A stretch of 40,000 nt of DNA from an uncultured Acidobacteriota bacterium. Lineage in GTDB: Bacteria; Acidobacteriota; Terriglobia; Acidiferrales; UBA7541. The stretch is taken from assembly GCA_963808465.1 (NCBI GenBank), contig CAWEFX010000005.1, forward strand, positions 110,921 through 150,920, written 5' to 3'. Shown here piece after piece: positions 1-19,395 of this stretch. The notes below the pieces were generated by a model. It saw only the letters and a program-made list of their open reading frames with translations, searched no databases and had not been told where the DNA came from. How positions within the stretch are numbered: the stretch's first letter is position 1; each line of letters begins with the position of its first letter. The translations under genes and the position numbers were made by a program.

Positions 1-454
1 AACTCATGGTTCAGGCGAGGCTTTCGCGGATCTACTCGATGAATTCAAAAAGGCTTTGATTGATGAGGATGTTGCGGAAGACGTCTTGCTCTACGTCTCG
101 GTTGGGTCAAGCAGCGTTTGGATGAATTGATCGAAAGACAAAAGGCTGCAGTTATTAGTGTTGACGATTTCCGGCGGGGGTTTGATACATCCAAGTAGCG
201 TGCCAGAACTGGAGAAATCTCTGAAGGAACTCTGGAGCAACTTACGGGAACAATTAGAAATCGAGGCCGAACCGAATCTCATCAAGAGAGGCAAGCTTCT
301 CGCGCTCCGTTGTCTGCGGGAACGAAGACGAATCGAGGGACTTGAGGTGCCTGACGATTTTATCCCTGGATGTTTCCACATATTGGCCGACGTTCCAGAA
401 ATCGGATGGCACCCGCAATATGAAAAACTTCTCTCAAACGGAACAGCGCGATGA
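1..454 (+). pseudogene. 3' part of the ABC-3C effector-component gene (5' end outside the window), apparently frame-disrupted
   Basis: Protein-like reading jumps between frames. Frame 2 (2-127) reads ...EAFADLLDEFKKALIDEDVAEDVLLYVS and hits TGA at 128-130. Frame 1 (about 97-195) reads LGWVKQRLDELIERQKAAVISVDDFRRGFDTSK and ends at TAG 196-198. Frame 2 (about 190-454) reads SSVPELEKSLKELW...GCFHILADVPEIGWHPQYEKLL. The second junction sits at a G5 run (176-180). The stop overlaps the next gene's ATG (ATGA at 451-454), the usual ABC-3C gene order. Calling it the effector component is inferred from position only. Confidence 0.4.
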
Positions 455-945
455 GTGTCCTCGACGAAGAAATCAAACTTGTTCAGAATCCAGCCTATGG
501 GGCTCTCATTCTTGCTGGTTTCGTGCAGGGATACACGGAGGGCCATCCAGAGAGCGATGGCGCTCCAATGGAGTATCTGTTTGTGGCCCTTCCGATTTTG
601 CTCCACAAAGACACTCTCGACGTAATCGAGAGCACTCGATTAGGACTGCGAAAATTTGCGGAAAAGTTCATCTCCGGAGAGCAAGGTCGGACCGACCTCC
701 TTCTTTCAATTAACAAAAGATCGATTGATCTACGGCCACTCACTCTCGAATCAATTGAAATGATGCTTCTATCCGGTCTCGGGCACCTAAATCCAGAGAC
801 GGCAAAGTTTAGACCCCTGAAGATAATTGGTCTTGATGAACACCGTGGCTTGCCTAGGTCGGTTGAGCTTGCGCGTAGGCTTGGCGCTTGGTTTAGCGAG
901 TTGAGCTTCTTTGAGATTGGAAACATTTTGAAGGTCGCCTTCTGA
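451..945 (+). CDS. ABC-3C (ABC three-component system) middle component
   Basis: 164-aa helical protein (NPAYGALILAGFVQGY...LFVALPILLHKDTLDVIESTRLGLRKFAEKF). I recognise this as the family annotated three-component ABC system middle component. It is translationally coupled on both sides (ATGA at 451-454, TGATG at 943-947) and lies directly upstream of the DUF3732 ATPase. Confidence 0.7.
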   Translation: MSVLDEEIKLVQNPAYGALILAGFVQGYTEGHPESDGAPMEYLFVALPILLHKDTLDVIESTRLGLRKFAEKFISGEQGRTDLLLSINKRSIDLRPLTLESIEMMLLSGLGHLNPETAKFRPLKIIGLDEHRGLPRSVELARRLGAWFSELSFFEIGNILKVAF

Positions 946-2921
946 TGTATTTTCAGATAAAGGAAGTAATTCTCTGGCCTCGTAATCGCGCGAAGGAATT
1001 TAGACGCGTCAAGTTTGAAGCGGGAACGGTAAATGTCATAACTGGCGCTTCTCAAACAGGCAAATCGGCCATGGTGCCGATTATTGATTACTGCCTAGGG
1101 TCGGGCCGTTGCGCGATCCCTGTAAACACGATCCGAGATGCGACCGAATGGTTTGGAATACTCTTAACCACAAACAGAGGGGACGTTCTATTGGCGCGTC
1201 GAGAGCCCGGCGAGTTTATTGCCAGCGGCGACATGTGCATAATCGAGCTGCCCAAGGAGATCCCGGCAACCGCTCCTGACAAAAACACAACGCGCGACTT
1301 TGTGAAAACTTATTTGAATGAATTAACTGGTCTGACATCGCTAGATTTTGACCCGAATGCTGCTGGTACCTTCAGAGCACGCCCAAGCTTCCGTGATTTA
1401 GCGGCTTTCAATTTTCAGCCACAAAATGTCATCGCAAACCCAGATGTTTTGTTCTTCAAGGCGGATACCGTTGAACATCGAGAAAAGTTGCGGACCATTT
1501 TCCCTTACGTCTTGGGAGTTGTAACTGCTGACATTTTGGCAAAACGCTACCGACTTGAGGAACTGAGGCGTGAGGAAAAAAGACTATCGAGAGAAATTGA
1601 AACACTCAAACAAGCGTCCGACAGATGGCTTGCCGAACTACATATCAACTTGTCGAAAGCACGGGAGCTGGGACTGATTCCAAAAGACACGCCCGCAAAT
1701 GTTAGCCAGCAGGAAGGAATCGGTCTACTACGACAAGTCGTGACAAGACCATATGAACGCCCAAGGGTCACTGCTCAGACCATAGACACGGTGCTTACTG
1801 AACTAAATGATCTCAAGGGGGAAGAGGCGTCACTTTCGCTAGATCTTTCTGGGCTTCGACAGCGCTGGCTAGAAATGTCCCGTCTACGAAAGGCTGCTTT
1901 TGAATATCAGCAAGCGCTGATGACTGAGGAAGAGCGTCTCTCGATATCCACTTGGTTACTTGAACAGCGCGGGCAGGACGAGAGCAAATGCCCGATTTGT
2001 GGTAACTCAATGGATAGAACTCGCAGCCATCTCGAACATCTCGTTGCGTCACTGGAACAGGTAGAGGGAACCCGAACAAGTTTCCGCACCCTGCCGGAGA
2101 CTTTCGACAGAGAATACGTTCGGGTGCAAAGTGAAATCTCACAGAAAGCCTTACGACTGTCAAATGTTCAATTACGAATTGCGTCGCTTCAGGAGCTATC
2201 CGACGCTGAGAGAGAACGCAGGTATATGGAGATCGGTGTTTCAAGGTTCGCTGGCAAACTTGAGGCGGATCTCGCGTTGTACGATCGATTTAATTCAGAT
2301 AATGATCTCCTCAAGCGTCGGGAGGCCGTTGCCGCAGAAATTGCTCAGCCTTTGAAAGAAGTAGATGAACACTCGTTACGTCAGCGAGAAAAACGTGCGC
2401 TCGATAGGGTGACGCTTGTGATGAGCGCGCTTTTAAATAACCTAGATGTTGAGAATCCAAAAGACCCAGTTTCACTATCAGTTTCAGAGCTAACCCTAAA
2501 AATCAAGCGGCGCGAACGTGAAGATTTTCTTTGGGAAGTAGGAAGCGGGTCGAACTGGCTGGGGTATCATCTCGCCCTCTCAATCGCTCTTCAACAGTAC
2601 TTCCTTGAAATTACTGGTTCTCCGGTTCCGTCTTTCCTAGTTCTGGATCAACCTAGCCAAGTCTATTTTCCGAAAAAGCTCGCGGCTATCCCAGGCGACC
2701 AAGACCTGGATCCAAAGCTCGCTGATGATGATGCCCTCCGCGTGCGGCATATTTTCCAGTTGTTAGCACGAGTGGCTCAGGATGCCAAATCAAGACTACA
2801 GATTATCGTTTTGGATCACGCGGGGGACACGGTATGGGGCGACATTGAGGGTGTTCACTTGGTTGAAGAGTGGCGCGAGGGCAAGAAACTCGTGCCTATG
2901 GAGTGGATCTCTCCAACATAA
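945..2921 (+). CDS. DUF3732-type ABC/SMC-like ATPase of an ABC-3C system
   Basis: The N-terminus MYFQIKEVILWPRN...VNVITGASQTGKSAMVPIIDYCLGS carries Walker A (GASQTGKS) and is typical of DUF3732. A long charged, coiled-coil-like middle contains CPICG. The C-terminal part has Walker B / D-loop-like FLVLDQPSQVYFP and IIVLDHAGD. Confidence 0.85.
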   Translation: MYFQIKEVILWPRNRAKEFRRVKFEAGTVNVITGASQTGKSAMVPIIDYCLGSGRCAIPVNTIRDATEWFGILLTTNRGDVLLARREPGEFIASGDMCIIELPKEIPATAPDKNTTRDFVKTYLNELTGLTSLDFDPNAAGTFRARPSFRDLAAFNFQPQNVIANPDVLFFKADTVEHREKLRTIFPYVLGVVTADILAKRYRLEELRREEKRLSREIETLKQASDRWLAELHINLSKARELGLIPKDTPANVSQQEGIGLLRQVVTRPYERPRVTAQTIDTVLTELNDLKGEEASLSLDLSGLRQRWLEMSRLRKAAFEYQQALMTEEERLSISTWLLEQRGQDESKCPICGNSMDRTRSHLEHLVASLEQVEGTRTSFRTLPETFDREYVRVQSEISQKALRLSNVQLRIASLQELSDAERERRYMEIGVSRFAGKLEADLALYDRFNSDNDLLKRREAVAAEIAQPLKEVDEHSLRQREKRALDRVTLVMSALLNNLDVENPKDPVSLSVSELTLKIKRREREDFLWEVGSGSNWLGYHLALSIALQQYFLEITGSPVPSFLVLDQPSQVYFPKKLAAIPGDQDLDPKLADDDALRVRHIFQLLARVAQDAKSRLQIIVLDHAGDTVWGDIEGVHLVEEWREGKKLVPMEWISPT

Positions 2922-2994
2922 GCTGATCACTTTAGCTTGCTTGTGCACCTCCACTTCAGATCCGCTCGTGCCTGTGCCGTAATCCGTACCGAGG

Positions 2995-4728
2995 TTAGGG
3001 AACAACTGACGCCTTGTGCTTGTTGATAGCAGCGCTTAGGTTCGTAAGGAGCGGACGAAAATCAGTGAAGTCAATCGTATCCGCCTTCGGTCGGACGACC
3101 TTGTGCGCAAAGACCTTCTTACTGTAGTGCTTGTCCTTATCGAAGCCAACGCTGGTGTTAAGAGTCTTGCCATCAATAACTGTCGCCTTGATTGAAGCGT
3201 CGAAGAAGTCCTCGATCTTAGACGAAGTCGCAGGACCTATAAGTGGTGTCGGCACGGCATACAGGTTCTTGATGATATGAACAAACGGCTCGGATCCGGT
3301 GGGCATTACCTTCGTCGCCTCCTTTATCGCGTTCCAGACGTCCTTTGCACCGCTGTCGTTGTCATACAACAGTACGACCGGCTCTGTTAGCCCAGGGCCG
3401 GTGAAGTGTTTGGTCTCCTTCCTGTACGCGCCGATGAACTTTGCCAGCACGCTGCTGCCGCCGTCCTTAAGACCGAGAAGTCGCGCTGTACTTGTGCGGG
3501 GATACTTGTAGAGCCTGATCTTTAGCCGAATCTTTCCGTCAGGCATCACGTCCGCCAGAGTAGGGAACCCCGCCACGAGGCTTCGGATCGCATGCGTGAG
3601 ATAGACGTTATCGGTCTCTCCCTCGCAAATGACCACGGGAGCCTGAGCCGCGTAGAACGTGCTGTAGATTAAGAACTCTCGGTAAACCTTTTCGCTCGAT
3701 GACATCTCGTTGGACAGGGCATCCGACGTCTGAGTCTTGTTGTAGACCTCTATGCTGTCGATAAATCCCAGCATGCCGTGAAGCTCATTCGATGTGCCCG
3801 GCCGCTTCTCCAAGACAGCGTGTCCATCCTTTTGTGTCACACCAAGGATCTGGAATGTTCCGGTTTTAATAAGGCTGTGGACCATCGCCCGTACGTTGTG
3901 ACGGTACTCCCACCGAACATTAATCTTCTTGTTGACGACGAGGCCGGTTACGTTCTGCCGCGAGGCTCGGTACATCTGGTGTGTCTTCTTCGCGTTGATG
4001 CGAAAGCCGGTGCGCTCGATGACCTCCTGCAGTGCTTCACCGGGCACCCACAAATGGGAGGCAGGGCCCTCGGCACCTGACGGCAGGGCGATATCCGCTG
4101 GAAACTCTTTTTTGTTGGTCGAGAATGTAAGGTCATCCGCGTATCGGGAATATGTGCACCCGACCTTGGATGCCAGCTTCACCAGGCGCATGTCGAGCAA
4201 ATGAGCGACCAGATTGGATATGACTGGCGAGCAGGGGCTTCCTTGCGGCAGTGAGTGGTCGTGACAGGCGATCTGCGCAATCACCGTCGCGACGTCTTGA
4301 TGCAGCTGGAAGTCTTGGTTCTTGATCAGAAAACCGCGCACCCTACCGAAGTTGATTGACGGGAAGAAATCCTCCAGGTCCAGGTTGAAGACCCAGCGGC
4401 GGTGGCGGTGCTGTCGCGCATTTGTAATGATCGACCGCCTGCGCTTGAATCCGTGCGCCGCCCGGTCCTTGCGCTGCTTGGCTTTGTTTATTTCGTCGAC
4501 GCAGTCCTGCATGAGGTCGGACAGCTTGTGCTGCAGAAGCTTCAACCCATCAACAGGTGCCTTGATCGTTCGTTGCCCTCCATTCCGTTTGGGAATCTGG
4601 AAGGTCTTGTATTTCATCGCGTCTGGCTGTCGGTATGAGAGGTAAGAGACAGCTTTCGGCTTGAAATCCAGCAGCTTTGCCACGTCGCTGAGCGATGTCG
4701 CTGCCTTCAGAGTGGTAAGTCTGGACAT
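2995..4728 (-). CDS. Retron-type reverse transcriptase fused to a C-terminal TOPRIM domain (type I-C / Ec67-like architecture)
   Basis: RT motifs: QIPKRNGGQRTIKAP, FNLDLEDFFPSI, LPQGSPCSP, and the catalytic YSRYADDLTFS. Retron-specific signatures: NAxxH (ITNARQH) and VTG (RQNVTGLVVN). The C-terminal 200 aa or so has the TOPRIM Glu (VVICEGETDNVYL) and DxD (VLLYDNDSGAKD). At 577 aa it is similar in size to the Ec67 RT as I recall it. Confidence 0.85.
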   Translation of the reverse strand: MSRLTTLKAATSLSDVAKLLDFKPKAVSYLSYRQPDAMKYKTFQIPKRNGGQRTIKAPVDGLKLLQHKLSDLMQDCVDEINKAKQRKDRAAHGFKRRRSIITNARQHRHRRWVFNLDLEDFFPSINFGRVRGFLIKNQDFQLHQDVATVIAQIACHDHSLPQGSPCSPVISNLVAHLLDMRLVKLASKVGCTYSRYADDLTFSTNKKEFPADIALPSGAEGPASHLWVPGEALQEVIERTGFRINAKKTHQMYRASRQNVTGLVVNKKINVRWEYRHNVRAMVHSLIKTGTFQILGVTQKDGHAVLEKRPGTSNELHGMLGFIDSIEVYNKTQTSDALSNEMSSSEKVYREFLIYSTFYAAQAPVVICEGETDNVYLTHAIRSLVAGFPTLADVMPDGKIRLKIRLYKYPRTSTARLLGLKDGGSSVLAKFIGAYRKETKHFTGPGLTEPVVLLYDNDSGAKDVWNAIKEATKVMPTGSEPFVHIIKNLYAVPTPLIGPATSSKIEDFFDASIKATVIDGKTLNTSVGFDKDKHYSKKVFAHKVVRPKADTIDFTDFRPLLTNLSAAINKHKASVVP

Positions 4729-4746
4729 ACTTCACGAAATAAAGAG

Positions 4747-4879
4747 GGACTCACCGGCACTCCTTGGCGATAGACAATACACGATAGGCACATGGAGAGC
4801 CGCACACATAGCCAATGCATACTCCCTCACATTTGTTTCAAATGCCACGAAACATGGCACAAAATCTGCCGGCGAGTCC
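4747..4879 (-). ncRNA. Candidate retron msr/msd ncRNA (boundaries tentative)
   Basis: On the minus strand, GGACTCGCCGGCA (4879-4867) can pair with TGCCGGTGAGTCC (4759-4747). That is 13 bp including one G-U, an a2/a1-like long-range stem. A G follows the 5' arm directly (complement of 4866), where a branching G would be expected. An internal hairpin GTGCCA-TGTTTCG-TGGCAT is present. The 3' arm ends 18 nt before the RT ATG. No convincing long msd stem-loop was found. Confidence 0.35.
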
Positions 4880-4885
4880 GGGCGA

Positions 4886-4894
4886 ATTCTAACA
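4886..4894 (-). promoter_or_regulatory. Extended -10-like promoter element TGTTAGAAT upstream of the candidate retron ncRNA
   Basis: The minus strand reads TGTTAGAAT (TGn + TAGAAT). Its 3' end is 6 nt from the first base of the candidate a2 arm (4879). The -35 is weak (CAGACC). Confidence 0.3.
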
Positions 4895-5145
4895 TAGTGC
4901 TCGACTCGGTCTGGCAGGTCCCGTTAGGCCCGAATGAGTAAGCGGCGCAGCCCGTGAGATGTCTGGGCTCCTTGGATAGAAGCACACTGTTTTTTATCTC
5001 CTCTGGCGTAGAACGTTGAGGGCGTGTATATAGCTACATGATAATAATGTGCTTGTAATAATCTGGCAGCCCGTCTGAGGCGGATGTAAAACTAGGCCGA
5101 TTTTTACTGTCTAACAGTTGGGCTGTGCGCTCGACCGAGGTTTAC

Positions 5146-6471
5146 ATGCACTTACCGATTAATCCTAAATTCTTGATCTTGTTAGTCGCCGCCGCGATCT
5201 GTTCCATTGTTCTGGGTTGCGGTAGTTCGTCTTCTGGGCCCAACTCTGAAGCCGTTGATAATGTCCATAGATCCTTGGACCGAGCCGGGTACGAGGATGT
5301 CGTGGTGCGGCCTACCCACGGAGTTCTGGTGTTGGACGGAACGGTAGCCAGTGAAGGAGACAAAGCTCACGTACAATTCTTAGCCAAAGAAAATGCTGGA
5401 CCATTTGTTGTGTCGAATTATGTCAGTGTTCACTCTCCGGCGGATACGATACAAGCAAAAGTGGTCACTCAAGTTGAGGAAGAGAATTCTAACTATAGCG
5501 TCGTACGCATATTTTATGCGACTGACCGAAAGCTCTCCGGTTTTCAGCCACCTATAGCAAACTACACTGGGGATCGATCCGACGACGATGCTCTCTCTTT
5601 TGGAACCCTTGACGTCAGCATCCCGCAAAACCACCACGTAGGTGAATTAGAGAGACCTTCTATTCTGCGATTTGAGGTACGCGAAGACCCAGAAAAGCAT
5701 GTGGTAGTCCTGAAAGTCGCACTCAAATCGGAGGCTCAGTTTTACAGCGAAGTGTCCTCTAGAGTAGGTTCTTCAGCTGGTAAAGAAGCATTCGTGTTCA
5801 TTCATGGATACGATGTTAGCTTTCTTGACGCCGCTAGAAGAACGGCACAAATCGCATACGATCTGGGCTTTGATGGAGCTCCGATCTTATATAGTTGGCC
5901 GTCAAAAGGCGAGATCCTATCGTATCCGGCTGACGAAGCCACTATCGAATGGACCGCGCCCCATTTGAAGCAGTTTCTTGAGAAGCTTGCGCTTAAGTCG
6001 CACGCGACTACGATCAATCTGATCGCGCACAGTATGGGAAACCGCGCCTTAACCAATGCGTTAAATTCCATTGCCACAGAACATTCAGGTACGCCAATGT
6101 TCAACGAAGTTTTAATGGCCGCACCCGATATCGATGTGGGCGTTTTCAAGCAATTGGCAGCGATATTCCCAAAGCCCGCGACTCACGTAACTCTTTATAG
6201 TTCGTCCAAAGATGAAGCATTGATTGCGTCCAAAAAATATCACCAGTATCGTCGCGCCGGGGACTCAAGCCCCGTAGTAATTCTCCCGGGGATCGACACC
6301 ATCGACGCAACTGCGGTTGATACTGGCTTTGGCCATTCGTATTACGCTGACAATCGGGCTATCCTTGCTGATATCCATACACTTCTTAGAAGCTACGATC
6401 CTCCGAGCAAACGGTTTGGAATGCGGCCAAACAAACCTCAAAATCCTACGTACTGGATATTTAATCCCTAA
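5146..6471 (+). CDS. Lipoprotein with a BON-like domain and a DUF900-type alpha/beta hydrolase domain
   Basis: Signal peptide with lipobox (LILLVAAAICSIVLGC-GSSSS). BON-like segment (VHRSLDRAGYEDVVVRPTHGVLVLDGTVASEGDK). DUF900-like core FVFIHGYDVSFLDAARRTAQIAYDL...PILYSWPS...INLIAHSMGNRAL (nucleophile elbow HSMGN). The ATG at 5146 is preferred over the GTG at 5125 used in the ORF track. Confidence 0.7.
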   Translation: MHLPINPKFLILLVAAAICSIVLGCGSSSSGPNSEAVDNVHRSLDRAGYEDVVVRPTHGVLVLDGTVASEGDKAHVQFLAKENAGPFVVSNYVSVHSPADTIQAKVVTQVEEENSNYSVVRIFYATDRKLSGFQPPIANYTGDRSDDDALSFGTLDVSIPQNHHVGELERPSILRFEVREDPEKHVVVLKVALKSEAQFYSEVSSRVGSSAGKEAFVFIHGYDVSFLDAARRTAQIAYDLGFDGAPILYSWPSKGEILSYPADEATIEWTAPHLKQFLEKLALKSHATTINLIAHSMGNRALTNALNSIATEHSGTPMFNEVLMAAPDIDVGVFKQLAAIFPKPATHVTLYSSSKDEALIASKKYHQYRRAGDSSPVVILPGIDTIDATAVDTGFGHSYYADNRAILADIHTLLRSYDPPSKRFGMRPNKPQNPTYWIFNP

Positions 6472-6523
6472 AAAAGCAATGTGAGTTTTTCGCTACTCAC
6501 ACAAGCGGACAGAATGCGCAGAG

Positions 6524-6558
6524 GGGGTGCAACTTTGAGGGGCTCTATCTCCTATCCC
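6524..6558. repeat. Solo remnant of a casposon TIR end, just outside the left target-site duplication
   Basis: GGGGTGCAACTTTGAGGGGCTCTATCTCCTATCCC resembles the right TIR terminus GGGGGGCACTTTCGGATGCCCCTATCTCCTATCCCC (21677-21712). Its last 16 nt (6543-6558) are the exact reverse complement of left TIR positions 6573-6588. Confidence 0.5.
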
Positions 6559-6572
6559 GCGGCTGCCTTGAC
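6559..6572. repeat. Target-site duplication, left copy (GCGGCTGCCTTGAC)
   Basis: The identical 14-mer occurs at 21713-21726 in direct orientation. Each copy abuts the outer end of a TIR. A 15-bp length cannot be excluded because the preceding base is C at both sites. Confidence 0.75.
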
Positions 6573-6655
6573 GGGATAGGAGATAGAGGCGTCCGAAAGT
6601 GCCCCCCCCTCCCTCGGGGGCACCAGGGAAGGGGCCAGGGGCGACGGGCGCGCGC
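6573..6655. repeat. Casposon left terminal inverted repeat
   Basis: GGGATAGGAGATAGAGGCGTCCGAAAGTGCCCCCCCC... matches the reverse complement of 21631-21712 (GGGGATAGGAGATAGGGGCATCCGAAAGTGCCCCCCC...). The outer ~37 bp differ by 2 substitutions and a 1-nt tip indel. The inner ~45 bp are GC-rich with weaker similarity. Confidence 0.75.
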
Positions 6656-6693
6656 GAGCGCCACGGTGCGCGGGAAAGCGCGTGGGCCAACTT

Positions 6694-6713
6694 CCGAGAA
6701 CACCGTTTCTCGG
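6694..6713. repeat. Short hairpin repeat CCGAGAA-N6-TTCTCGG (copy 1)
   Basis: CCGAGAACACCGTTTCTCGG, a 7-bp perfect stem with a 6-nt loop. Related copies are at 7239-7259, 7783-7803 and 8589-8608. Confidence 0.6.
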
Positions 6714-6729
6714 GCACTGGGCGACTTCA

Positions 6730-7206
6730 ATGACCACGCCGTCTTCAACGGACTCGTGGCAGAATGGTCCGGCGATGAATATTGTTGATTCATTGAATCC
6801 GTTTGCGCGGCGCGTCTGGAGTGCTCTTTCCGCCGAATATCCCCACTGGACTGGCTACCTCGGCCTCTGCGGTGAAGACGACCTCGAAGTAGCAGTTCCA
6901 GCACCACCTGGGTCGAACGCAGGACATCTCGTGATCTTCACATCAGACGGCAAGGATTTGTGGATTCGGTTCAGTCCGCCGCGCATGTGCTATGCCGTTG
7001 ACGATGAGACAGAGATGCTGGAGATCATTCGTCAACTTCAGGACGACTCGGCTTTATTTGTTGTCACCATGCAGGGTGATGAATGGGTGGGGACAACGCT
7101 AATTAGGCCGGGGGACCTGCCTGAAGTTGAGTCGAATCAGATAGTGCATGTTGTCTCATGGTCTGGAAAACACGACCGCACCCTAATTACGAAAGCACCC
7201 GCCTAA
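6730..7206 (+). CDS. Hypothetical protein
   Basis: Long ORF with coding-like composition and no recognisable motifs. The start is uncertain: 6730 or 6775 ATG. The ORF-track start at 6682 overlaps hairpin repeat copy 1. Confidence 0.5.
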   Translation: MTTPSSTDSWQNGPAMNIVDSLNPFARRVWSALSAEYPHWTGYLGLCGEDDLEVAVPAPPGSNAGHLVIFTSDGKDLWIRFSPPRMCYAVDDETEMLEIIRQLQDDSALFVVTMQGDEWVGTTLIRPGDLPEVESNQIVHVVSWSGKHDRTLITKAPA

Positions 7207-7259
7207 GTCCCGAGAAGTTTGAGACCGATTCCCACTTACCGAGAACACCGTTTATCAGG
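7204..7259. repeat. Composite intergenic repeat: TAAGTCCCGAGAAGTT box plus a degenerate CCGAGAA hairpin (copy 2)
   Basis: TAAGTCCCGAGAAGTT (7204-7219) is identical to 8583-8598. CCGAGAACACCGTTTATCAGG (7239-7259) closely matches 7783-7803. Confidence 0.6.
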
Positions 7260-7280
7260 AGTTGGTCGCCTGATCCTCGT

Positions 7281-7469
7281 TCATAACCGCTTTTCGACCC
7301 ATAGCAACTGACCGGGAACTTCCAGCGTCCAGTTGTGGCCGCACGATGGACACAAGATTGTCTCAGTAGATATAGACAGGGTAGCGCTTTTTCCCACTCG
7401 ACAACGTATTACGACAGGCTTGCTGCAACGATTGCAGTGCTCATCTCTCGTGAACATCTCGGTTAGCAT
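7281..7469 (-). CDS. Small zinc-ribbon protein (hypothetical)
   Basis: MLTEMFTRDEHCNRCSKP...ILCPSCGHNW has two CxxC pairs. The start at 7469 was chosen to avoid overlap with the upstream ORF and is uncertain. Confidence 0.45.
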   Translation of the reverse strand: MLTEMFTRDEHCNRCSKPVVIRCRVGKSATLSISTETILCPSCGHNWTLEVPGQLLWVEKRL

Positions 7470-7485
7470 GGATGAGCCGATGTAA

Positions 7486-7716
7486 TCAGTGTGGCCTCGG
7501 CGTGCAGAGCGGGCACACCAAGTCACGCAAGGCGTGCAGTGCGTCTCTGAGGGCTGCTCGTTCGTCCTTGGCGAGTTTATCCGAGTGCAGCAGACGGCGG
7601 GTGATGGCCCTCTCCGCAGCGAGCAGGTTATGACAGTCGGCGGGCCACATCAGAGAATCAAACACCGCTCGTTGCCAGGGATACTTGGGTTGCCAAATCA
7701 TCGTGGGCCAAGGCAT
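7486..7716 (-). CDS. Small hypothetical protein
   Basis: 76-aa ORF with WQPKYPWQRAVFD...AAERAITRRL...ERAALRDALHALRDL. It resembles a small-protein family I associate with Acidobacteria-like genomes. Function unknown. Confidence 0.4.
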   Translation of the reverse strand: MPWPTMIWQPKYPWQRAVFDSLMWPADCHNLLAAERAITRRLLHSDKLAKDERAALRDALHALRDLVCPLCTPRPH

Positions 7717-7782
7717 GGGGCCGCGAGGATATCACAGCGGAGGCGCACGCAAACTATCCCCGAGTCAGCAAAAAGCCTCATT

Positions 7783-7803
7783 CCGAGAACACCGTCTATC
7801 AGG
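7783..7803. repeat. Degenerate CCGAGAA hairpin repeat (copy 3)
   Basis: CCGAGAACACCGTCTATCAGG, lying between two minus-strand small ORFs. Confidence 0.55.
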
Positions 7804-8002
7804 CACAGCGGACAAACATAAGTTCCGATCGTTGAAAAAGCGAGGTTTGCTTACAGTTGGTACACTCTAGCCAGCTACCGCCTTCGGGAAATTCCGGCTT
7901 TGAAGGTAAAGCCCAAAGCGCGTAATTCGGTTTCTCCATATCAATTTCCGAGTGAATAAAATGTTTCTTGCATTGTGGGCACTTTAGAATCCAATGTGGC
8001 AT
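7799..8002 (-). CDS. Small zinc-ribbon protein (hypothetical)
   Basis: MPHWILKCPQCKKHF...WLECTNCKQTS has two CxxC pairs. 67 aa. Confidence 0.5.
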   Translation of the reverse strand: MPHWILKCPQCKKHFIHSEIDMEKPNYALWALPSKPEFPEGGSWLECTNCKQTSLFQRSELMFVRCA

Positions 8003-8274
8003 TCGAGCCTGCTCCGCTTAAGTTCCCTGCTTCCTGGAGGTGCGGACAATTGTTGTTGATTCGGTGCGAGCCGTCGTTGTCCAACCGCAATGAGTGACTT
8101 CAATTCCTGAAAGTCCTTCTCGGAAGCTGGCAATAGTGGAAACTGCCTTTTACAAACAGCGAATTGTAGGTCGCAAGCATCTCATGGCATGATAGTGGTC
8201 TTCCTCAGCGCATCGACGGAAGCTAGCCACACCTAAGTATTTCGAAAATAAATTGAATCCAGAGAGGACTAAAA

Positions 8275-8526
8275 ATGGACTTGTCGCATATTGTTTCTGA
8301 GCTTAAGAATGAAAGAAATCGAATTGATAGAGCTATAGCAGCACTGAATGGACTGAATGGAACAGGTATACAAAGGACCACTAAGACAAGCTCTGTCAAA
8401 CCGGCCGCTAGAACAGCGAAACACCGTGGCCATCTGACCGCAGAGGGCAGAAAGCGGTTATCGGAAATGATGAAGAAGCGATGGGCGGAACGAAGAAAAA
8501 GGGCCACAGGCCGCAAGGCTGCCTAA
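8275..8526 (+). CDS. Small basic hypothetical protein
   Basis: 83 aa with an N-terminal helix (IVSELKNERNRIDRAIAALNGL) and a Lys/Arg-rich tail (GRKRLSEMMKKRWAERRKRA). A strong hairpin terminator follows. Confidence 0.55.
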   Translation: MDLSHIVSELKNERNRIDRAIAALNGLNGTGIQRTTKTSSVKPAARTAKHRGHLTAEGRKRLSEMMKKRWAERRKRATGRKAA

Positions 8527-8543
8527 GCGGGTTGTTAGTTTCA

Positions 8544-8580
8544 AAGGGCACGACTCGCACCGTGCCCTTCGTTATTTACC
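8544..8580 (+). terminator. Rho-independent terminator-like hairpin
   Basis: AAGGGCACG (8544-8552) pairs with CGTGCCCTT (8561-8569), giving a 9-bp stem followed by a T-rich tract (CGTTATTTACCTTT). Confidence 0.5.
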
Positions 8581-8582
8581 TT

Positions 8583-8608
8583 TAAGTCCCGAGAAGTTAT
8601 ATTCTCGG
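8583..8608. repeat. TAAGTCCCGAGAAGTT box plus a perfect CCGAGAA-N6-TTCTCGG hairpin (copy 4)
   Basis: TAAGTCCCGAGAAGTTATATTCTCGG. The stem is CCGAGAA (8589-8595) with TTCTCGG (8602-8608). Confidence 0.6.
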
Positions 8609-8635
8609 AAAGTGCGTTTGAGCTTCAAGCCACGT

Positions 8636-11600
8636 CTAAATTCCACCAAGTCTCCGCAGCGCTGCCACAATCAACTCCTGGTTTTTAGGATGCGGTCTTG
8701 TGTATCCGGCCCGGGCTTTCATAAGCATTCTGCGGGATCGAGGAATTTCTTTCACAAGAAGTGACAGTGGCACTTTGTTCATTGCAGGCCGAATTTTGGT
8801 TTCCCATTCATCGCGTTTCGGGTCTGGATATTCCGTGTACACGTTTTGCGCAGAGTGAATTAGACCGGCTTCGACTTCTTCGAGGCTGTTGGATTCCTTG
8901 CCGATGTATTTGAGTTGATCGATTCGAATGTGTCGCCGCTGCAGCAAACCAATCGTCTGCTTACCGCAGCGTTTTCCTTGTGCATCCGCACACTTTGATT
9001 CCGCATGAAATTCATATTCAAGTAGAACGTCGCCGTAAGTTTTCACACGCACGGCACCTCGCCTATCATGATGACCTTCGGTAGTTATACGGTGCGATTT
9101 CCCCGTATATTGGTCGATCCAATCTGTTTTGAGCCATTGCCTCGAATCTGCCTCATACGGCGCAATTAAGTGAAAGCGCTGTGGGTCTACATCGGGAGGA
9201 TAGCCGAACGGCCTCACGTGGCAGGTCTTCAGGAAATTGTATGGCTTGATCTGGTCGGGGTATCGTTTCCCCTCATTAAGGTTTGCTAAAGGCCTCATGA
9301 CGGCAGGACTGCTTATGGTCACACGTCCCACAGCTGGCAAATTCTCAAATCCCAAATTTTCGGTCGGCAAGTCCAAGGCTCTGCGAATAATGTTTGTCCA
9401 CGCTTGCGCTATCCACTCGCGGTCTTCGCTTTCAGGATCGGTTGGATTCAAAAGATGACCCAAGCCATGCTCAGACCATCGGTCCTCCTTATTATTAACC
9501 CCGTTCCGAAGCAGGATCGGTTCTCCATCCTCATTCTTAAGGAAAAGCGCATACCTCTTCGCGGAGATCGCGAGACAGTAAAGCTGGCGCTGATTCCCAT
9601 TTTTCGGATCAAAGTTATCATCCTCGATCTTTAGAATCGAGCCCGGTATTGCTTCGCGATTGTATGGATTAAGGGCGTCAAAACGCTGAGATATTTGCCG
9701 AATCTGTTCCCACGAAAGAGCGTGGATTACTTCGTGTCCATCGACAGAAGGAATCACTCCCCCGTGTTCCGTGGCAACGATTGCCATAGAGTCGGTATCT
9801 TCCATTGCATAGGTGCCGCCTAACTCCCGAACGGAGATTTCCAATAAGGCCAGAGTTAGCCTTGCCGCACCTGTAATCAATGATGCGAGCGGCGGAAAGC
9901 AAAATTCTCCGGGGACGTCAGGGTGAGCCACGCGGCAGGTGAACGGTTCTGGATCAATGCCGTGACAGTTTACGTTGACCTCTCGGTCGGATTCTTGCCG
10001 ATTCATTTCCGCATAGATGCCGTAGCTCGCCGCGTTTGCGAGGACTTTGAGGGCTTTATCGAGACGCGTCCGTTCGTTTTCGGGAAGGTCGGTCCGCGAC
10101 GATAAACGCTTGCGTTCCTCGATCGCAACTCTGAAGAAATCCTGCTCTTTTGGATCTATCGATATCGCGTTGCGCAGTTTCGTTCCATTGAGTTCTGATA
10201 GTTTTGGGTCTGCCGCGATACGGAACGCTTCGATAATCTTAGGAGTTCTCCCGGTCAAAAGTCTGGAAACAACAACATCAGGCAGCGAAAACCATAAGGC
10301 ATCGTTTGGGTCGTCATTTCGCGCGTAAATATGATTTACGGCAACTTGCCAGTCGTTGCTCTCAAGACTGTACTTGGCGCGAGATGGAAGAATGTCACCA
10401 TTCGGAATAACACGGACAAAAGCCTGTAGATATTGCCAGGTTCGGGGGTTGAACAAATCCACCACCTCTAGTCGTTTGAGAAATGCCCTTATTTCGTCGG
10501 CGCAGTTTTCTATAACCCGAATTTCACGGGCCGTAACAAAATCCCACAATCCCATGAGGCTGTTAACCGTGGGATACATGGAAAGGAAATCGCAATACAC
10601 GACCGGGACCGCGATTTTCCGAATATGCCCGCTTGCTCGTCCGCCGAAAAAGGCCGACTGCGCATACCCGAGATACGCTTTTGGAAAGTTTGGCTGCCTC
10701 TCAAAGATCGGTCTGATCCCCATCGCCCTCAGATATGACTTACCGATTGACGCTGGCGAATACGCTTTTGTAGCCTGGAGCGCTATCGGATGCTTATCGT
10801 ATTCTTCGAGCAGCTTCGCGGTTAGTTCTGAGGTGGCCAAAACATCGCGGCGGTTGTAATCAATGTATTCTTCTGTAACCTCGCCGTGGCGTTCAGCACG
10901 TTTTTTGCGATGCTCCACGCCGAAATCTTCGCAGGCGCTTTCTAATGTGTAGCCTTTGTCGGTGAGGGCAAATGCAAGGGTGCGTACGTCTAGGAAATGA
11001 CCGTGAAACACGTATTCCTTCGTTGGCCTTCCCGAACGCGAACCTTCCGGTATCAGATCGACTCTGTCAGGCTTTTTCCTGCCGGTAAAGGCTTTGAGCG
11101 CGCGTTTGCTGTCGATTTGTTTGATGGCAACTCTGGGCCGGTATTTATCTCGGCTCTCGTGGCCCTCTGGGTCGGAATATGACCATAATCCAAGCGAAAA
11201 ACCCCCGACAAAACGATCACGTGCGTCCGTGAAATCGCTAGCGACTCGGGAAATATCAAACGGGAAACTAAAAGCAATTAGAAGGCAGCGGCCCTTGTAA
11301 GCGGCTAAAAATAATCGATCGACGAATTGGGAGCGGCTAAGTAAACGGAGTGAGCTAATGCCATAAATCGTATCAGCCTTATGTTTTGAGACGTAATCCT
11401 CCAGAACTTTACGATCTTGCGTGGGTAGATCATCACCATAGAACAAACCTTCTTCCAGACAGTCACCCGAAACGATGAATCTGTAGCTTCCAAACGTGAG
11501 CCGCTGAGCCGCATCGACCCGCGTTTCCGTATCAAATACCAACATTGCATTTGGACGTGGTGGCGGTGGCTTCCGTGGTTCGAAATTCCTCCCTTCGGGA

Positions 11601-11698
11601 TAGACCCGTATCGCGATGGACAATGGATCGGGTACACGATCCGAGGCGCCGATTAGCGTGTTGGCACGAATTGCGCTATTGGAGTGTTCATCCACCAC
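8636..11698 (-). CDS. polB: Divergent family-B DNA polymerase (casposon PolB)
   Basis: ExoI LVFDTET; Exo-like YNRRDVLAT; motif A VVYCDFLSMYPTV; motif B KALKVLANAASYGIYAE; motif C TYAMEDTDSMAIV; KxY ISAKRYALF. 1020 aa. The start is uncertain: the GTG at 11698 overlaps the upstream ORF by 46 nt. Confidence 0.85.
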   Translation of the reverse strand: MVDEHSNSAIRANTLIGASDRVPDPLSIAIRVYPEGRNFEPRKPPPPRPNAMLVFDTETRVDAAQRLTFGSYRFIVSGDCLEEGLFYGDDLPTQDRKVLEDYVSKHKADTIYGISSLRLLSRSQFVDRLFLAAYKGRCLLIAFSFPFDISRVASDFTDARDRFVGGFSLGLWSYSDPEGHESRDKYRPRVAIKQIDSKRALKAFTGRKKPDRVDLIPEGSRSGRPTKEYVFHGHFLDVRTLAFALTDKGYTLESACEDFGVEHRKKRAERHGEVTEEYIDYNRRDVLATSELTAKLLEEYDKHPIALQATKAYSPASIGKSYLRAMGIRPIFERQPNFPKAYLGYAQSAFFGGRASGHIRKIAVPVVYCDFLSMYPTVNSLMGLWDFVTAREIRVIENCADEIRAFLKRLEVVDLFNPRTWQYLQAFVRVIPNGDILPSRAKYSLESNDWQVAVNHIYARNDDPNDALWFSLPDVVVSRLLTGRTPKIIEAFRIAADPKLSELNGTKLRNAISIDPKEQDFFRVAIEERKRLSSRTDLPENERTRLDKALKVLANAASYGIYAEMNRQESDREVNVNCHGIDPEPFTCRVAHPDVPGEFCFPPLASLITGAARLTLALLEISVRELGGTYAMEDTDSMAIVATEHGGVIPSVDGHEVIHALSWEQIRQISQRFDALNPYNREAIPGSILKIEDDNFDPKNGNQRQLYCLAISAKRYALFLKNEDGEPILLRNGVNNKEDRWSEHGLGHLLNPTDPESEDREWIAQAWTNIIRRALDLPTENLGFENLPAVGRVTISSPAVMRPLANLNEGKRYPDQIKPYNFLKTCHVRPFGYPPDVDPQRFHLIAPYEADSRQWLKTDWIDQYTGKSHRITTEGHHDRRGAVRVKTYGDVLLEYEFHAESKCADAQGKRCGKQTIGLLQRRHIRIDQLKYIGKESNSLEEVEAGLIHSAQNVYTEYPDPKRDEWETKIRPAMNKVPLSLLVKEIPRSRRMLMKARAGYTRPHPKNQELIVAALRRLGGI

Positions 11699-12156
11699 TT
11701 TGATCCCAATGACTCCCGCAGAAATGCATCAGCCTTTTCTAACATCTCTGGAATCCAAAGCAGCATTTTCTTAACGAGGTAGATGATGTAATCGACAAAG
11801 CCGCGAATGCATGCGGCAGCGCGTAAGAATGGGCTACCGTCGGAATTTTCAAGCGTCTGTTTGGGCCAATTGTACTGAGCTGCTGATAGTTCAGCACGAT
11901 GGTCGTTTAATGGTGCGGGCATGGTTGTCTTGTCGTTCGCTCGGCCTGCCACGTGATGTAAATCCTCTTTTGCCTTTCCTTCTTTTTCTCGCTCACACTC
12001 TCCGCAAATAATAGTTTTCCCGTGCCTCTCAAGAGCCAACGGACGCGCCTCACCGCATGCACACTGCGCACCGACACCAACGCGCCGCGCAGCCGCAGCA
12101 TTGCGGGCGTATGCACCAATAGCGTCGCATTCTGGCAATTCTAGTTTGTTTGGCAT
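11653..12156 (-). CDS. Zinc-finger / HNH-like protein (putative nuclease)
   Basis: CxC...CxxC (QCACGE...IICGEC) followed by DLHHVAGRANDKTTMPAPLNDHRAEL, a loose HNH pattern (HH...N...N-x-H). It sits in the same operon directly upstream of PolB. Confidence 0.45.
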   Translation of the reverse strand: MPNKLELPECDAIGAYARNAAAARRVGVGAQCACGEARPLALERHGKTIICGECEREKEGKAKEDLHHVAGRANDKTTMPAPLNDHRAELSAAQYNWPKQTLENSDGSPFLRAAACIRGFVDYIIYLVKKMLLWIPEMLEKADAFLRESLGSKWWMNTPIAQFVPTR

Positions 12157-12777
12157 TTACGCAGACCTCGCATAGAGCGTTTCAAACGACAAGACACCCG
12201 CGCTCGCTAGCCGATCCAACTCAGCTAGATCGGTAAGCAAAGGAACAATCCTGCCATTCGCATCAATGAAAGACTGACCTGTGAATTGTTGGATTGCCGA
12301 GGCGTCGCCGGTTTGGACGTAACGATCAGCGGCATTCCAATGCTCGGAAACCACAGACGCTTGGCGGGAGTCTCGCAAGCCTACCACCAGTCGCCGCCCT
12401 TGCGGTCCTTCCTGCGTCAATACTCCGAGCACGCGCAACAGCCGATCACTTGCTTTGGGGGTGTACCGTCCGTTTGGCTTCTTCCGCAGAACTGAACCGG
12501 CCAAGCGGCGGACCGTACGCGGACTAATGTGATATTCACGTGATACTTCTCGAAGTGATTCCTTATCTTTTCGCATTTGTGTGACGACGTGGGTCATCCG
12601 TTCCCATCTGTCTTGGAAACTTTCAGATCTGGCGACGAACTCTTCGGCGGTCCGGGGTGCGCGTTGCTGTGGAAATCTTCGCTTCATACCATCCTCCAAG
12701 GGTGTGTATTCCGATGGTTTCTTAGACCTTGAGCCTACACCTGTTTTTTGGGTTCCAGAGGCAAAATAGGCTGACAT
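12157..12777 (-). CDS. HTH-domain protein
   Basis: HTH-like SLREVSREYHISPRTVRRLAG. It abuts the HNH-like ORF (stop at 12157, next start at 12156) and is the first gene of the minus-strand HTH-HNH-PolB operon. Confidence 0.55.
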   Translation of the reverse strand: MSAYFASGTQKTGVGSRSKKPSEYTPLEDGMKRRFPQQRAPRTAEEFVARSESFQDRWERMTHVVTQMRKDKESLREVSREYHISPRTVRRLAGSVLRKKPNGRYTPKASDRLLRVLGVLTQEGPQGRRLVVGLRDSRQASVVSEHWNAADRYVQTGDASAIQQFTGQSFIDANGRIVPLLTDLAELDRLASAGVLSFETLYARSA

Positions 12778-12814
12778 CGTGGCCCCAATAGGGCCATAAT
12801 GTTATGGCACTCTG

Positions 12815-13297
12815 ATGACCAAGGCCAAAATGAACCGTTACGAAACGCAGGTATTGGTTGTCCTATTCGAGCGGATGTTTGGACAGAGAGTCACAAACTT
12901 AAATCTCAGCAAACACGAAATCCTCGCAGAAGGATTCGACAATCTCAATGACAGACTCGGCTCCATTGTGGGACACCTGATCAAGTCATATGGAATGGTG
13001 ATCAAAAACCAAGCACAGGCCAACGGCGTGATAGAAACAATTCGCAAAATGTCAGAGAAGGATGTGCGTATGGTGAGGAAGCAACTGAATGAAACGATGC
13101 GAACATTCCTCGGAAGCGCGGAGAAACTGGGAAGAAGGGAAAAGCTAACGGCGACACAGAAAAAGGACTTTTGTGGAATTGTCGGCACCTTTATTGGCAA
13201 CGGTCACAGCTTGAAAGACGCCTTACAGCTGGCGGCTGGTCAGCACAAGGTAAGTTTCAGAACTGGGCGACGCATTTGGGAGAATCGGCCATACTGA
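12815..13297 (+). CDS. Hypothetical helical protein, possible C-terminal HTH
   Basis: 160 aa. The C-terminus GHSLKDALQLAAGQHKVSFRTGRRIWENR looks HTH-like. It is divergent from the PolB operon and directly upstream of Cas1. Confidence 0.45.
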   Translation: MTKAKMNRYETQVLVVLFERMFGQRVTNLNLSKHEILAEGFDNLNDRLGSIVGHLIKSYGMVIKNQAQANGVIETIRKMSEKDVRMVRKQLNETMRTFLGSAEKLGRREKLTATQKKDFCGIVGTFIGNGHSLKDALQLAAGQHKVSFRTGRRIWENRPY

Positions 13298-13379
13298 GAA
13301 CCAAAACATGAATTGCAGCGGGACGCGCCGGTGCGCTAACACCGAACGCGCCCCTGACTACCACGGAGGTAGTGCTCCA

Positions 13380-14915
13380 ATGGCAGCTTCGGCAAACGTA
13401 TATCAACTTCCGCATTCCAGCAATTTACTCACCCCGCGACATGGGACGCTGACCCTCTACGGATATGGAATTCGGGTTTACGTAGAACGTGGTCATTTGA
13501 TCGTGAAGGACGGAATCGGTTGTGATCGCCACGAAGGACGCTTCGCTCGTGTAGGGCATGGGTTGCGTCGCCTGGTTGTAATTGGGTCCGACGGATTCGT
13601 CTCCCTGTCCGCCCTCAACTGGTTAGCAAATCAGGAAGCAGCATTTCTCATGCTTGAACGGGATGGCAAGCTTCTCTTAGCAACGGGGCCAACCGGTCCT
13701 TGGGATGCGCGGCTTCGTCGCTCACAAGCTCTCGCACGAAACACACACGTCGCCTTAGATATCGCTCGCGAACTAATCACGCAAAAGTTGACCGGGCAAG
13801 AACAGATTGCCCGAGACAGACTTGAGGATCAGGCCGTGGCGGACACGATTGCTCAAGCGCGTGCCGATGTGGGCGCAGCCGATACAATTGAGATGATTCG
13901 CTTGCTGGAAGCACACGCAGCGCACGCGTACTGGACGGCATGGCGCAAACTCAAAATTGATTTCCCGAAAAGCGATCTCCAGCGCGTACCTGATCACTGG
14001 CTTTCATTCGGAACACGCAAATCCCCGCTGACACGTTCACCTCGTCTCGCGGGTAATCCAGCTAATGCAATTCTTAATTATTTATACGCGCTTCTCGAAT
14101 CGGAAGCCCGGCTTGCTGCTGTTGCGCTTGGATTAGATCCCGGCATTGGCTTTTTGCACGTTGAGACTGACGCTCGCGACAGCCTCGCTTGCGACTTAAT
14201 GGAGGCGATTCGCCCACACATTGACGCCTACGTTCTTGACTGGATTCGTCGGCAGCCGTTCCGTCGCGAGTGGTTCTTCGAAAAGAGCGATGGCAACTGC
14301 CGTCTAATGGCACAGTTCTGCTTGCGACTTTCGGAGACGACACAAACATGGGGCGCTTTGATTGCTCCAGTTGCCGAGTGGGTCTCGCGCACCCTATGGT
14401 CAACAATTCGGAACTCAGGTCGGCAGGTTCATCCAGCTACCCACCTTACACAGACTCACAGACGAGAGACTAAACGCGAAGGATGCGGACTGCCCCTTCC
14501 GCCAGCGCCCCAAGCTCCCCGCGTCTGTCCACACTGCGGAGCTTCAGTAAAGGCAGGAAAAACTCACTGCGCTCCCTGCGCCATCACCATACAGCGGCAG
14601 GGATTCCTAAAGATCGCGGAGCAAGGACGAATGGTCTCACACTCAGCCGAATCTGAGCTTAAGCGCGGGGCCACACAGCGAAAGCGACATGAGGCTCAGC
14701 GTAATTGGCACATTTGGAATCATCCGACATGGCTGACGGAGCAGTTTTATTCCGAACAGATTCAGTCGCGACTTGGCAAAGTGGAAGTTAAAAGAATAGC
14801 TGCGACTCTAGGTGTATCGATCACATACGCCAGCTATATTCGCGCCGGGCGACGGCGGCCACATCCAAGACACTGGGAGACGCTGGCGCGACTCGTGAGG
14901 GTTGGACAGGACTAA
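13380..14915 (+). CDS. cas1: Cas1-family integrase (casposase) with a C-terminal zinc ribbon and HTH extension
   Basis: Cas1 signatures: LEAHAAHAYW, RLAGNPANAILNYLYALLESEARLAAVALGLDPGIGFLHVETDARDSLACDLMEAIRPHIDAYVLDW (conserved E, H and D/E context). C-terminal CPHCG...HCAPC, then IAATLGVSITYASYIRAGRRRPHPRHW. The ATG at 13380 follows GGAGGT; the ORF-track start is 13308. Confidence 0.9.
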   Translation: MAASANVYQLPHSSNLLTPRHGTLTLYGYGIRVYVERGHLIVKDGIGCDRHEGRFARVGHGLRRLVVIGSDGFVSLSALNWLANQEAAFLMLERDGKLLLATGPTGPWDARLRRSQALARNTHVALDIARELITQKLTGQEQIARDRLEDQAVADTIAQARADVGAADTIEMIRLLEAHAAHAYWTAWRKLKIDFPKSDLQRVPDHWLSFGTRKSPLTRSPRLAGNPANAILNYLYALLESEARLAAVALGLDPGIGFLHVETDARDSLACDLMEAIRPHIDAYVLDWIRRQPFRREWFFEKSDGNCRLMAQFCLRLSETTQTWGALIAPVAEWVSRTLWSTIRNSGRQVHPATHLTQTHRRETKREGCGLPLPPAPQAPRVCPHCGASVKAGKTHCAPCAITIQRQGFLKIAEQGRMVSHSAESELKRGATQRKRHEAQRNWHIWNHPTWLTEQFYSEQIQSRLGKVEVKRIAATLGVSITYASYIRAGRRRPHPRHWETLARLVRVGQD

Positions 14916-15053
14916 TGCGACACGTAGACGCAGTGGTTTTGCGGTTGGTGGCAGCGGTCTCGGCCCAGAAAAGACCGAGCTTACCAGGACATAGGCTTTA
15001 CGGATTGAAATCTCGCCCGGTTCAATCCCTTGCGCTGGTTTCGGGGGTCCGTG

Positions 15054-15833: not shown

Positions 15834-16144
15834 GATTACTCCTCGATTAGAGAGAAACTTACTGCCGAGGGGATAAAATCTGGTAGAGGTTATCAGGTAA
15901 TAAGCTGAATTGGAAGCTACCACGTAAGCATCTGAGCAACCGGCACTGCCCTCAGCATCTCCTGGTCCTTCCTTGCGAGGGGTGAACTTTGCAAGTCGGC
16001 CTAAATTCCTGTAAGCCGTGCGAGGTCCTCCCCATGCCGTTCGTGCGGACGGCGCTTTCCCCTCCGATATCAGCAGCGTATGCGCTAAACAATGAGGTCT
16101 TTAGACTTGAACTCTTTGGGACTCGCCGTATGATTGGCGTGCCA

Positions 16145-17273: not shown

Positions 17274-17310
17274 ACCACTCGTTTGCCCATTGTCCGTACA
17301 CCGCGAATGT

Positions 17311-19363: not shown

Positions 19364-19395
19364 CGCTTCTCCAAAGGGGCGGCTATTCGGGGCGG

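Follow-up and report, generated by a model that had tools for sequence, protein, structure and literature searches.

The stretch of DNA analysed here (the window: 40,000 nt, positions 110,921 to 150,920 of contig CAWEFX010000005.1, GenBank assembly GCA_963808465.1) comes from an uncultured Acidobacteriota bacterium and contains a gene for a reverse transcriptase (RT) fused to a Toprim nuclease domain. Comparison with known retrons indicates that this gene very likely belongs to a complete and apparently functional type I-C retron of the Ec67 (Retron-Eco2) kind, composed, on the minus strand, of a predicted promoter, a 133-nt non-coding RNA (ncRNA) gene of msr-msd type and the RT-Toprim gene. 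The retron is cargo inside a 20.3-kb casposon, here named element A, which is bounded by terminal inverted repeats (TIRs). The location of the retron features and of two neighbouring genes is given in Table 1.

The RT-Toprim protein and its relatives

The RT-Toprim gene is a single intact open reading frame (ORF) of 577 aa that starts with ATG and is uninterrupted. In a PADLOC profile search, a check proposed in the preliminary description of this DNA, its product matched RT-Toprim_I-C best (746 bits, E 6e-225, residues 1-574), while RT-TIR_XII (366 bits) and RT-Protease_XI (344 bits) reached half of that score and covered the RT part only, over ca. 330-380 residues. Indeed, type XII and type XI retrons have a similar RT domain but end in a TIR or a protease domain, respectively, where the window protein has Toprim. 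The NCBIfam model NF038237 (retron_Ec67_fus, named retron Ec67 family RNA-directed DNA polymerase/endonuclease) matched residues 5-570 with 697.9 bits (E 9e-210) against a curated cut-off of 450 bits; the NCBIfam model Retron_TIR gave 317 bits, below its cut-off of 600, and RVT_1 was the only Pfam family detected in the 577-aa protein. The top match among solved structures was Retron Ec67/Eco2 (9LM3; 9I2F/9I2G/9S1F; E 7e-121), a single RT-Toprim protein of 586 aa and type I-C1 that can be aligned over residues 2-559. Full-length identity to the Ec67 protein of E. coli (locus L095) is 39%, and the same PADLOC pair of hidden Markov models, PDLC02966/02963, is best for both proteins. Acidobacterial proteins that are 72% identical to that of the window carry the NCBI name "retron Ec67 family", and homologues in metagenomes number in the thousands.

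The signatures that had been read from the sequence in the preliminary description, namely NAxxH (NARQH), VTG (within NVTGLVVN) and YADD in the RT, and a TOPRIM glutamate (CEGETD) followed by DxD (YDNDSG) in the C-terminal third, are all present, with coordinates checked by translation. Residue-by-residue alignment to Eco2 places E369, D373, D456/D458 and E506 on E374, D378, D460/D462 and E515, respectively, and the YADD, E/D and DxD catalytic residues are the same in both proteins. Among 13 homologues (69-100% identity), YADD, NAxxH, VTG, E369, D373, D456, D458 and E506 are invariant, as is K537 (K546 in Eco2). Alanine substitutions at the aligned Toprim residues of Eco2 abolish defence or RNase activity (PMC12405507; PMC12916289); the Eco2 residue designated K562 in PMC12405507 was left unmapped because residue 562 of the Eco2 chain that was aligned is an Asp. 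In type I-C, EGxxD (motif IV) together with DxD (motif V) is the signature of I-C1 and I-C3, and DxE that of I-C2 (PMC7736814); the Toprim signature found here, EGETD plus DND, fits I-C1 or I-C3 rather than I-C2.

A quick maximum-likelihood tree was computed from 68 proteins of the fetched loci (64 RT-Toprim proteins and four other fused RTs), with support from the Shimodaira-Hasegawa-like approximate likelihood ratio test (SH-aLRT). The 64 RT-Toprim proteins form one clade, separate from the four other fused RTs, and the window RT, for which a phylogenetic placement had also been proposed earlier, lies inside this clade, which has 100% support, in a tight soil/Acidobacteriota subclade (97-99%). 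The earlier assignment to type I-C, or Ec67-like, RT-TOPRIM fusions is thus borne out by the full-length PADLOC and NCBIfam matches, by the tree and by the Ec67-type ncRNA that lies upstream (see below); the equation of Ec67 with Retron-Eco2 was also correct (PMC7736814).

Relatives were sampled in two sets. The first comprises six close genome loci, all from metagenome-assembled genomes of Acidobacteriota, with 79-87% protein identity and usable upstream sequence in five of the six; the second comprises 80 metagenome loci with 31-84% identity. Among the 401 Acidobacteriota genomes sampled, the genome of the window alone has a full-length protein match, and six others have matches limited to the RT domain, in open frames of 434-550 aa and without the ncRNA recognised by the model R1 described below.

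The msr-msd RNA, its promoter and its msDNA

The gap of 396 bp upstream of the RT gene holds an inverted repeat of 13 bp whose arms are separated by 107 nt. On the minus strand, the order of elements is a1, G4866 with the invariant GATTT box, the 8-bp hairpin, a conserved AATG box, a variable region, a conserved GAG and a2. A segment of 146 nt folds at -55.1 kcal/mol (z -3.3), a value equalled by none of 200 shuffled sequences. Nearly all relatives whose upstream sequence is available have their longest inverted repeat at this place too, but with a different sequence, and the AGATTT and GAGT boxes are invariant in the 46 aligned loci. G4866 corresponds in position to the G found after a1 in the ncRNA gene of Ec67.

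Covariation was examined in two alignments. The first one, A4, contains 46 distinct ncRNAs that were chosen for having the a1/a2 repeat, which makes the test of helix 1 partly circular but not that of the hairpin; double-sided changes were found in 12 of the 13 a1/a2 pairs and in six of the eight hairpin pairs, with 98% of cells paired versus 30-40% when the partner was slid. For the second one, a covariance model (R1) was built from relatives without Ec67 and searched against all loci to remove the circularity of selection. It returned 77 matches (the window and 76 others), every one directly upstream of an RT-Toprim gene and 29 of them outside the 46 training sequences, and it gave no match at loci with other fused RT types. 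In the R1 alignment of 75 distinct sequences, which being fitted to the model is biased towards the model's own structure, 19 of the 21 base pairs covary and pairing is kept in 94% of cells. Double-sided changes concern 13/13 pairs of the a1/a2 stem. In the two alignments, six of the eight pairs of the msr hairpin covary, with 95-96% of cells paired, and sliding the partner lowers the paired share of cells to 30-45%.

R1 matches the window ncRNA with 105 bits and finds no second copy, whether in the window or elsewhere in the genome of 5.8 Mb. It also recognises the ncRNA of E. coli Ec67, absent from the training set, at 2992-3122 of locus L095 (72.4 bits, E ~1e-18), and the window ncRNA is, on the basis of this model, homologous to that of Ec67. 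The order of elements (a1, GATTT, msr hairpin, AATG, msd, GAG, a2) is the same in both and is captured by one covariance model; they differ in the distance between a2 and the ATG of the RT gene, which is ca. 37 nt in Ec67 and 18 nt here. Searches of the whole window and of 4600-5200 against Rfam gave no RNA family, either at gathering thresholds or with E values up to 10. One locus (L067, ca. 2330-2480) has no R1 match while its RT-Toprim is nearly identical to that of L071, which has one; this could be a miss of the filter or a real loss of the ncRNA.

Upstream of a1, the predicted extended -10 element takes the form TGnTAGAAT or TGnTAGAGT in each of the six close loci, and many distant loci have TGnTAnnnT or a -10-like box equally far from the branch G. 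A simple scan for promoters and terminators gave nothing above chance, and detected no terminator in the 73-bp convergent gap downstream of the retron gene.

In Eco2, the 67-nt msDNA begins two nucleotides 5' to a2 and ends with the G of the conserved AATG box (PMC12916289). By analogy with these boundaries, the msDNA of the window retron would be ca. 70 nt long, templated by 4761-4830. Neither this predicted msDNA nor the 67-nt msDNA of Ec67 folds better than shuffled sequence, and a stable msDNA hairpin is therefore unsupported for both loci. This poor self-folding agrees with the structure of Eco2, in which the msDNA forms an inter-subunit three-way junction and not a hairpin (PMC12916289).

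The segments of the retron differ widely in their conservation. Between the window and the six close loci (L001-L006), identity is 97-100% for the msr, 81-84% for the RT gene at the DNA level and 53-69% for the msd core (4761-4830). The msd is thus the fast-evolving part, being less conserved than RT coding DNA, next to a nearly frozen msr. This divergence is compatible with diversifying selection or with relaxed constraint on a putative msDNA sensor, and it fits the idea that the msd is the phage-sensing, fast-evolving part of the retron.

Table 1. Features of the type I-C retron and of its surroundings (window coordinates)
Feature	Position	Strand	Basis or remark
Retron RT-Toprim fusion gene (P0001)	2995..4728	-	ORF call, PADLOC, NCBIfam, PDB match, identity to E. 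coli Ec67
Reverse-transcriptase core, aa 45-263	3940..4596	-	Pfam RVT_1, 82 bits; holds NARQH, YADD and VTG
Toprim nuclease domain, ca. aa 360-560	3049..3651	-	Residue-by-residue alignment to Eco2
NARQH, aa 103-107	4408-4422	-	Translation-verified
YADD, aa 196-199	4132-4143	-	Translation-verified
VTG within NVTGLVVN, aa 260-262	3943-3951	-	Translation-verified
EGETD within CEGETD (E369/D373), aa 369-373	3610-3624	-	Translation-verified
DND within YDNDSG (D456/D458), aa 456-458	3355-3363	-	Translation-verified
E506	3211-3213	-	
K537	3118-3120	-	
Retron ncRNA gene (msr-msd), 133 nt	4747..4879	-	Inverted repeat, fold, covariance model R1
a1 arm, GGACTCGCCGGCA	4867..4879	-	Pairs with 4747-4759, 13 bp with one G-U
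Predicted branching (priming) G	4866	-	First base of the invariant GATTT box; branch predicted
msr stem-loop, 8 bp	4842..4860	-	Fold and covariation
Predicted msd template	4761..4830	-	Boundaries transferred from Eco2; msDNA would be the plus-strand sequence of the interval
a2 arm, TGCCGGTGAGTCC	4747..4759	-	Inverted repeat; ends 18 nt before the RT ATG
Predicted extended -10 promoter element, TGTTAGAAT	4886..4894	-	6 nt upstream of a1; conservation
Right TIR of casposon A, followed by target-site duplication CGGCTGCCTTGA	6523-6559; 6560-6571	.	TIR/flank comparison
LmuC (outside the retron)	451-945	+	Pfam MC3, PADLOC LmuC
LmuB, DUF3732 ATPase (outside the retron)	945-2921	+	Pfam DUF3732, PADLOC LmuB, 410 bits

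A casposon carrying the retron and its neighbours

Casposons are self-synthesising transposons and the presumed ancestors of CRISPR adaptation modules. Self-BLAST combined with a search for TIRs on the laid-out genome revealed two such elements in tandem. Element A extends from -13780 to 6559 (negative values lie to the left of the window; G000:C5:97140-117479, loci L097 and L014) and is 20,340 bp long with CGGCTGCCTTGA on both sides, its left TIR at -13780 (G000:C5:97140) being preceded by the same 12-mer that follows the right one. Element B, from 6572 to 21713 (15,142 bp), is flanked by this 12-mer as well. The junction at 6523-6609 resembles a palindrome and is made of the right TIR of A, the shared 12-bp copy of the target and the left TIR of B, so that the TIR at 6523-6559 is the end of a full-length element and no solo relic. 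The TIRs of A (37-38 bp) agree at ca. 35 of their first 38 positions, and those of each element match their own partner better than the TIRs of the other element. The array is located just upstream of rpmH, and the G+C content climbs from ca. 0.50 to ca. 0.60 past it.

The gene order in element A is serine recombinase, HTH protein, two ParB/RepB-like proteins, SLFN-like helicase, PolB, two small ORFs, Cas1, LmuA-like gene, LmuC, LmuB, retron and DUF900 lipoprotein hydrolase. Its Cas1, encoded to the left of the window (L014), has 515 aa, scores 141 bits and is 80% identical to that of B (13308-14915); its PolB, likewise encoded to the left of the window, has 1051 aa with a weak match to DNA_pol_B_2 (22 bits) and is 68% identical to that of B (8636-11698). 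With casposons of bacterial family 3 and archaeal family 2, element A shares the long Cas1, the family-B polymerase, the 37-bp TIRs, a target duplication of 12-14 bp and an arrangement in which another copy follows in tandem at the same target site. It differs by a cargo made of the retron, a Lamassu operon, the SLFN-like helicase, the serine recombinase and the ParB/RepB-like genes. Since it is positioned between the TIRs and among the genes of element A, the retron is cargo of this casposon, with which it probably spreads.

The SLFN-like helicase (634 aa; L097 5138-7042, ca. -8683 to -6779) is of Schlafen-group-3/DUF2075 type (Pfam 277 bits); in PADLOC it resembles PDC-S41, Nhi and AbiO, which are candidate single-gene systems, and it is a third defence-like cargo gene of A. 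The DUF900 alpha/beta hydrolase (5125-6471), with a lipoprotein-like signal (L-G-C) at its N-terminus, is encoded divergently from the retron, and no further gene separates it from the right TIR.

On the other side of the retron, the LmuB gene is convergent with it and the two stop codons are exactly 73 bp apart, as had been stated earlier of the ABC-3C ATPase gene. The preliminary description had viewed this left part of the window as a defence island. Defence-type genes are indeed present, but the region is more specifically the cargo region of a TIR-bounded casposon. The LmuB and LmuC genes are intact. The LmuA-like gene (-508 to 454; L014 11492-12454) has an in-frame stop at 128-130 and, at ca. 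95-190, a protein-like reading in another frame before returning to the first one, as in a double frameshift; PADLOC matches LmuA on this ORF over profile positions 7-190 of 373 only. The gene is apparently broken, as a pseudogene or by assembly indels.

The neighbourhood of the retron was compared by tblastn in 91 related loci, where LmuA, LmuC and DUF900 were not found beside it and a distantly similar LmuB-like gene occurred nearby once, with 36% identity (L002). Cas1 and PolB are not conserved beside the retron in these 91 loci, and the close relatives (80-87%) have neither within 5 kb. With its neighbours unconserved, the retron is not part of a fixed casposon module; a functional coupling to Lamassu or to DUF900 was rejected on the same absence of synteny, and Lamassu/ABC-3C is, on this comparative evidence, no conserved partner of what appears as a stand-alone retron.

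Several other traits of this area were noted. A solo right-end TIR is found at -17447 to -17410, and the genome holds no left end that would match it. It is followed (to -17202; L096 ca. 6553-6798) by a copy, 86-91% identical, of the flank upstream of rpmH (ca. 170 + 80 nt) that lacks rpmH itself; this may be what is left of an earlier insertion into a promoter region that had been duplicated. In element B, a stretch of 108 nt (17320-17427), located 2.4 kb downstream of its Cas1 gene, shares 72-74% identity with the 3' ends of the two Cas1 genes but is not preceded by the body of such a gene, and given this stretch element B may be a mosaic. Finally, the B cargo includes a 289-aa ORF on the minus strand (15054-15923) with tandem direct repeats at 15297-15767 (period ca. 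96 nt, 82-89% identity), while the majority of the remaining B cargo ORFs match no Pfam family.

Mode of action, alternative explanations and implications

If the retron operates as Eco2 does, the RT would prime from the 2'-OH of G4866 and copy ca. 70 nt of the msd into msDNA, with which RT-Toprim would form a self-inhibited oligomer whose Toprim active sites are covered by the msDNA. Degradation of the msDNA by a phage DNA endonuclease would then release the Toprim domain, which would cut tRNA or other RNA so that translation stops and the infection is aborted. The Eco2 complex is a trimer of RT-Toprim and msDNA that inhibits itself, its Toprim domains being caged by the msDNA (PMC12916289, PMC12405507); DenB starts msDNA decay, A1 being also implicated, the freed Toprim cleaves tRNAs/RNA, and anti-phage defence has been established as requiring the RT, the ncRNA and Toprim (PMC12405507, PMC12916289). 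A glutamate and DxD two-metal site in a Toprim fold is also shared with OLD-family nucleases, such as AriB of PARIS, GajA of Gabija and retron I-B effectors. AriB is a tRNA-cleaving effector (PMC12409363), as is activated Eco2 (PMC12405507). OLD-family systems differ in that the window retron has no ABC ATPase partner and that its nuclease is fused to the RT and presumably regulated by msDNA; the Toprim domains of type I-C form a lineage separate from OLD (Mestre et al. 2020, PMC7736814).

Some observations weigh against this reading or against its details. In the tree, Ec67 falls in a different I-C subclade than the window protein, and the Eco2 metal-B ligand S513 aligns with K504, a serine being found one residue earlier. 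Given the different subclade and the 39% identity to Eco2, the oligomeric state, the trigger and the RNA target may differ. DenB and A1 are coliphage proteins, and to our knowledge no trigger from an acidobacterial phage has been described. The apparently broken Lamassu effector gene looks like a sign that some cargo of element A is decaying, or else like an effect of indel errors in the assembly. An AlphaFold2 model made from a shallow alignment of 13 sequences was poor (mean predicted local distance difference test score, pLDDT, of 52) and adds nothing to the case.

The same LmuA gene, with its in-frame stop and apparent double frameshift, the stacking of several insertions and the solo TIR further left could suggest that the retron is itself a decaying, non-functional relic riding passively on the mobile element. 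We consider this unlikely: the ORF is uninterrupted and matches the family models end to end, the catalytic residues and the ncRNA boxes are intact, and an msr that is 97-100% identical where RT genes are only 81-84% identical points to purifying selection. Another explanation, to which we give a small chance only, is that the retron mainly benefits its carrier casposon, through addiction or as a weapon directed at competing elements, rather than providing host anti-phage immunity, the two roles being compatible. It shares the TIR-bounded element with other conflict genes (Lamassu and the SLFN-like helicase with its PDC-S41, Nhi and AbiO similarity), and Eco2 is a caged toxin that is mildly toxic without infection; the close relatives, however, have neither casposon gene within 5 kb, so that no dedicated casposon module is apparent, and Ec67 defends against phages from amid P2-like prophage genes (portal, terminase, replication endonuclease), which differs from the casposon of a soil acidobacterium described here.

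The short convergent gap that separates the retron from the Lamassu/ABC-3C operon, with both being of defence type, might be taken to mean that they form one composite system. The chance of this is negligible, as a single locus out of 91 has even a distant LmuB-like gene and none has LmuC, LmuA or DUF900, and PADLOC as well as Mestre et al. 2020 (PMC7736814) treat type I-C retrons as single-gene systems. Finally, weak secondary matches to models for group II intron RT, Drt2 and Drt3a raise the question of an RT of another class (group II intron, diversity-generating retroelement (DGR) or UG/Abi/DRT) with coincidental retron-like motifs. This is refuted by scores of 29-63 bits against cut-offs of 200-390 (63 versus 300 for TIGR04416), where the Ec67 family model reaches 698 bits, by the lack of any intron RNA or DGR template repeat, Rfam being empty, by the tree and by the presence of the retron ncRNA.

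A complete type I-C retron thus remains by far the best explanation for this locus. As such, it is an ordinary addition to an anti-phage family that is already understood mechanistically and, for retron biology, it provides confirmation rather than discovery, the added value residing in the casposon context, which is modestly new, and in the family-wide ncRNA model. According to this covariance model and the 77-member I-C alignment, one RNA architecture has been kept from Ec67 of E. coli to soil Acidobacteriota. The presence of the retron inside an intact casposon represents an example of casposons carrying defence cargo; a limited literature search found no paper linking casposons with retrons. 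Overall, it is likely that a Cas1-PolB casposon of Acidobacteriota captured a retron, a Lamassu system and an SLFN-like helicase as cargo. If true, self-synthesising transposons would serve as vehicles for unrelated immune systems, and the retron would be mobilised, and perhaps selected, together with the element.

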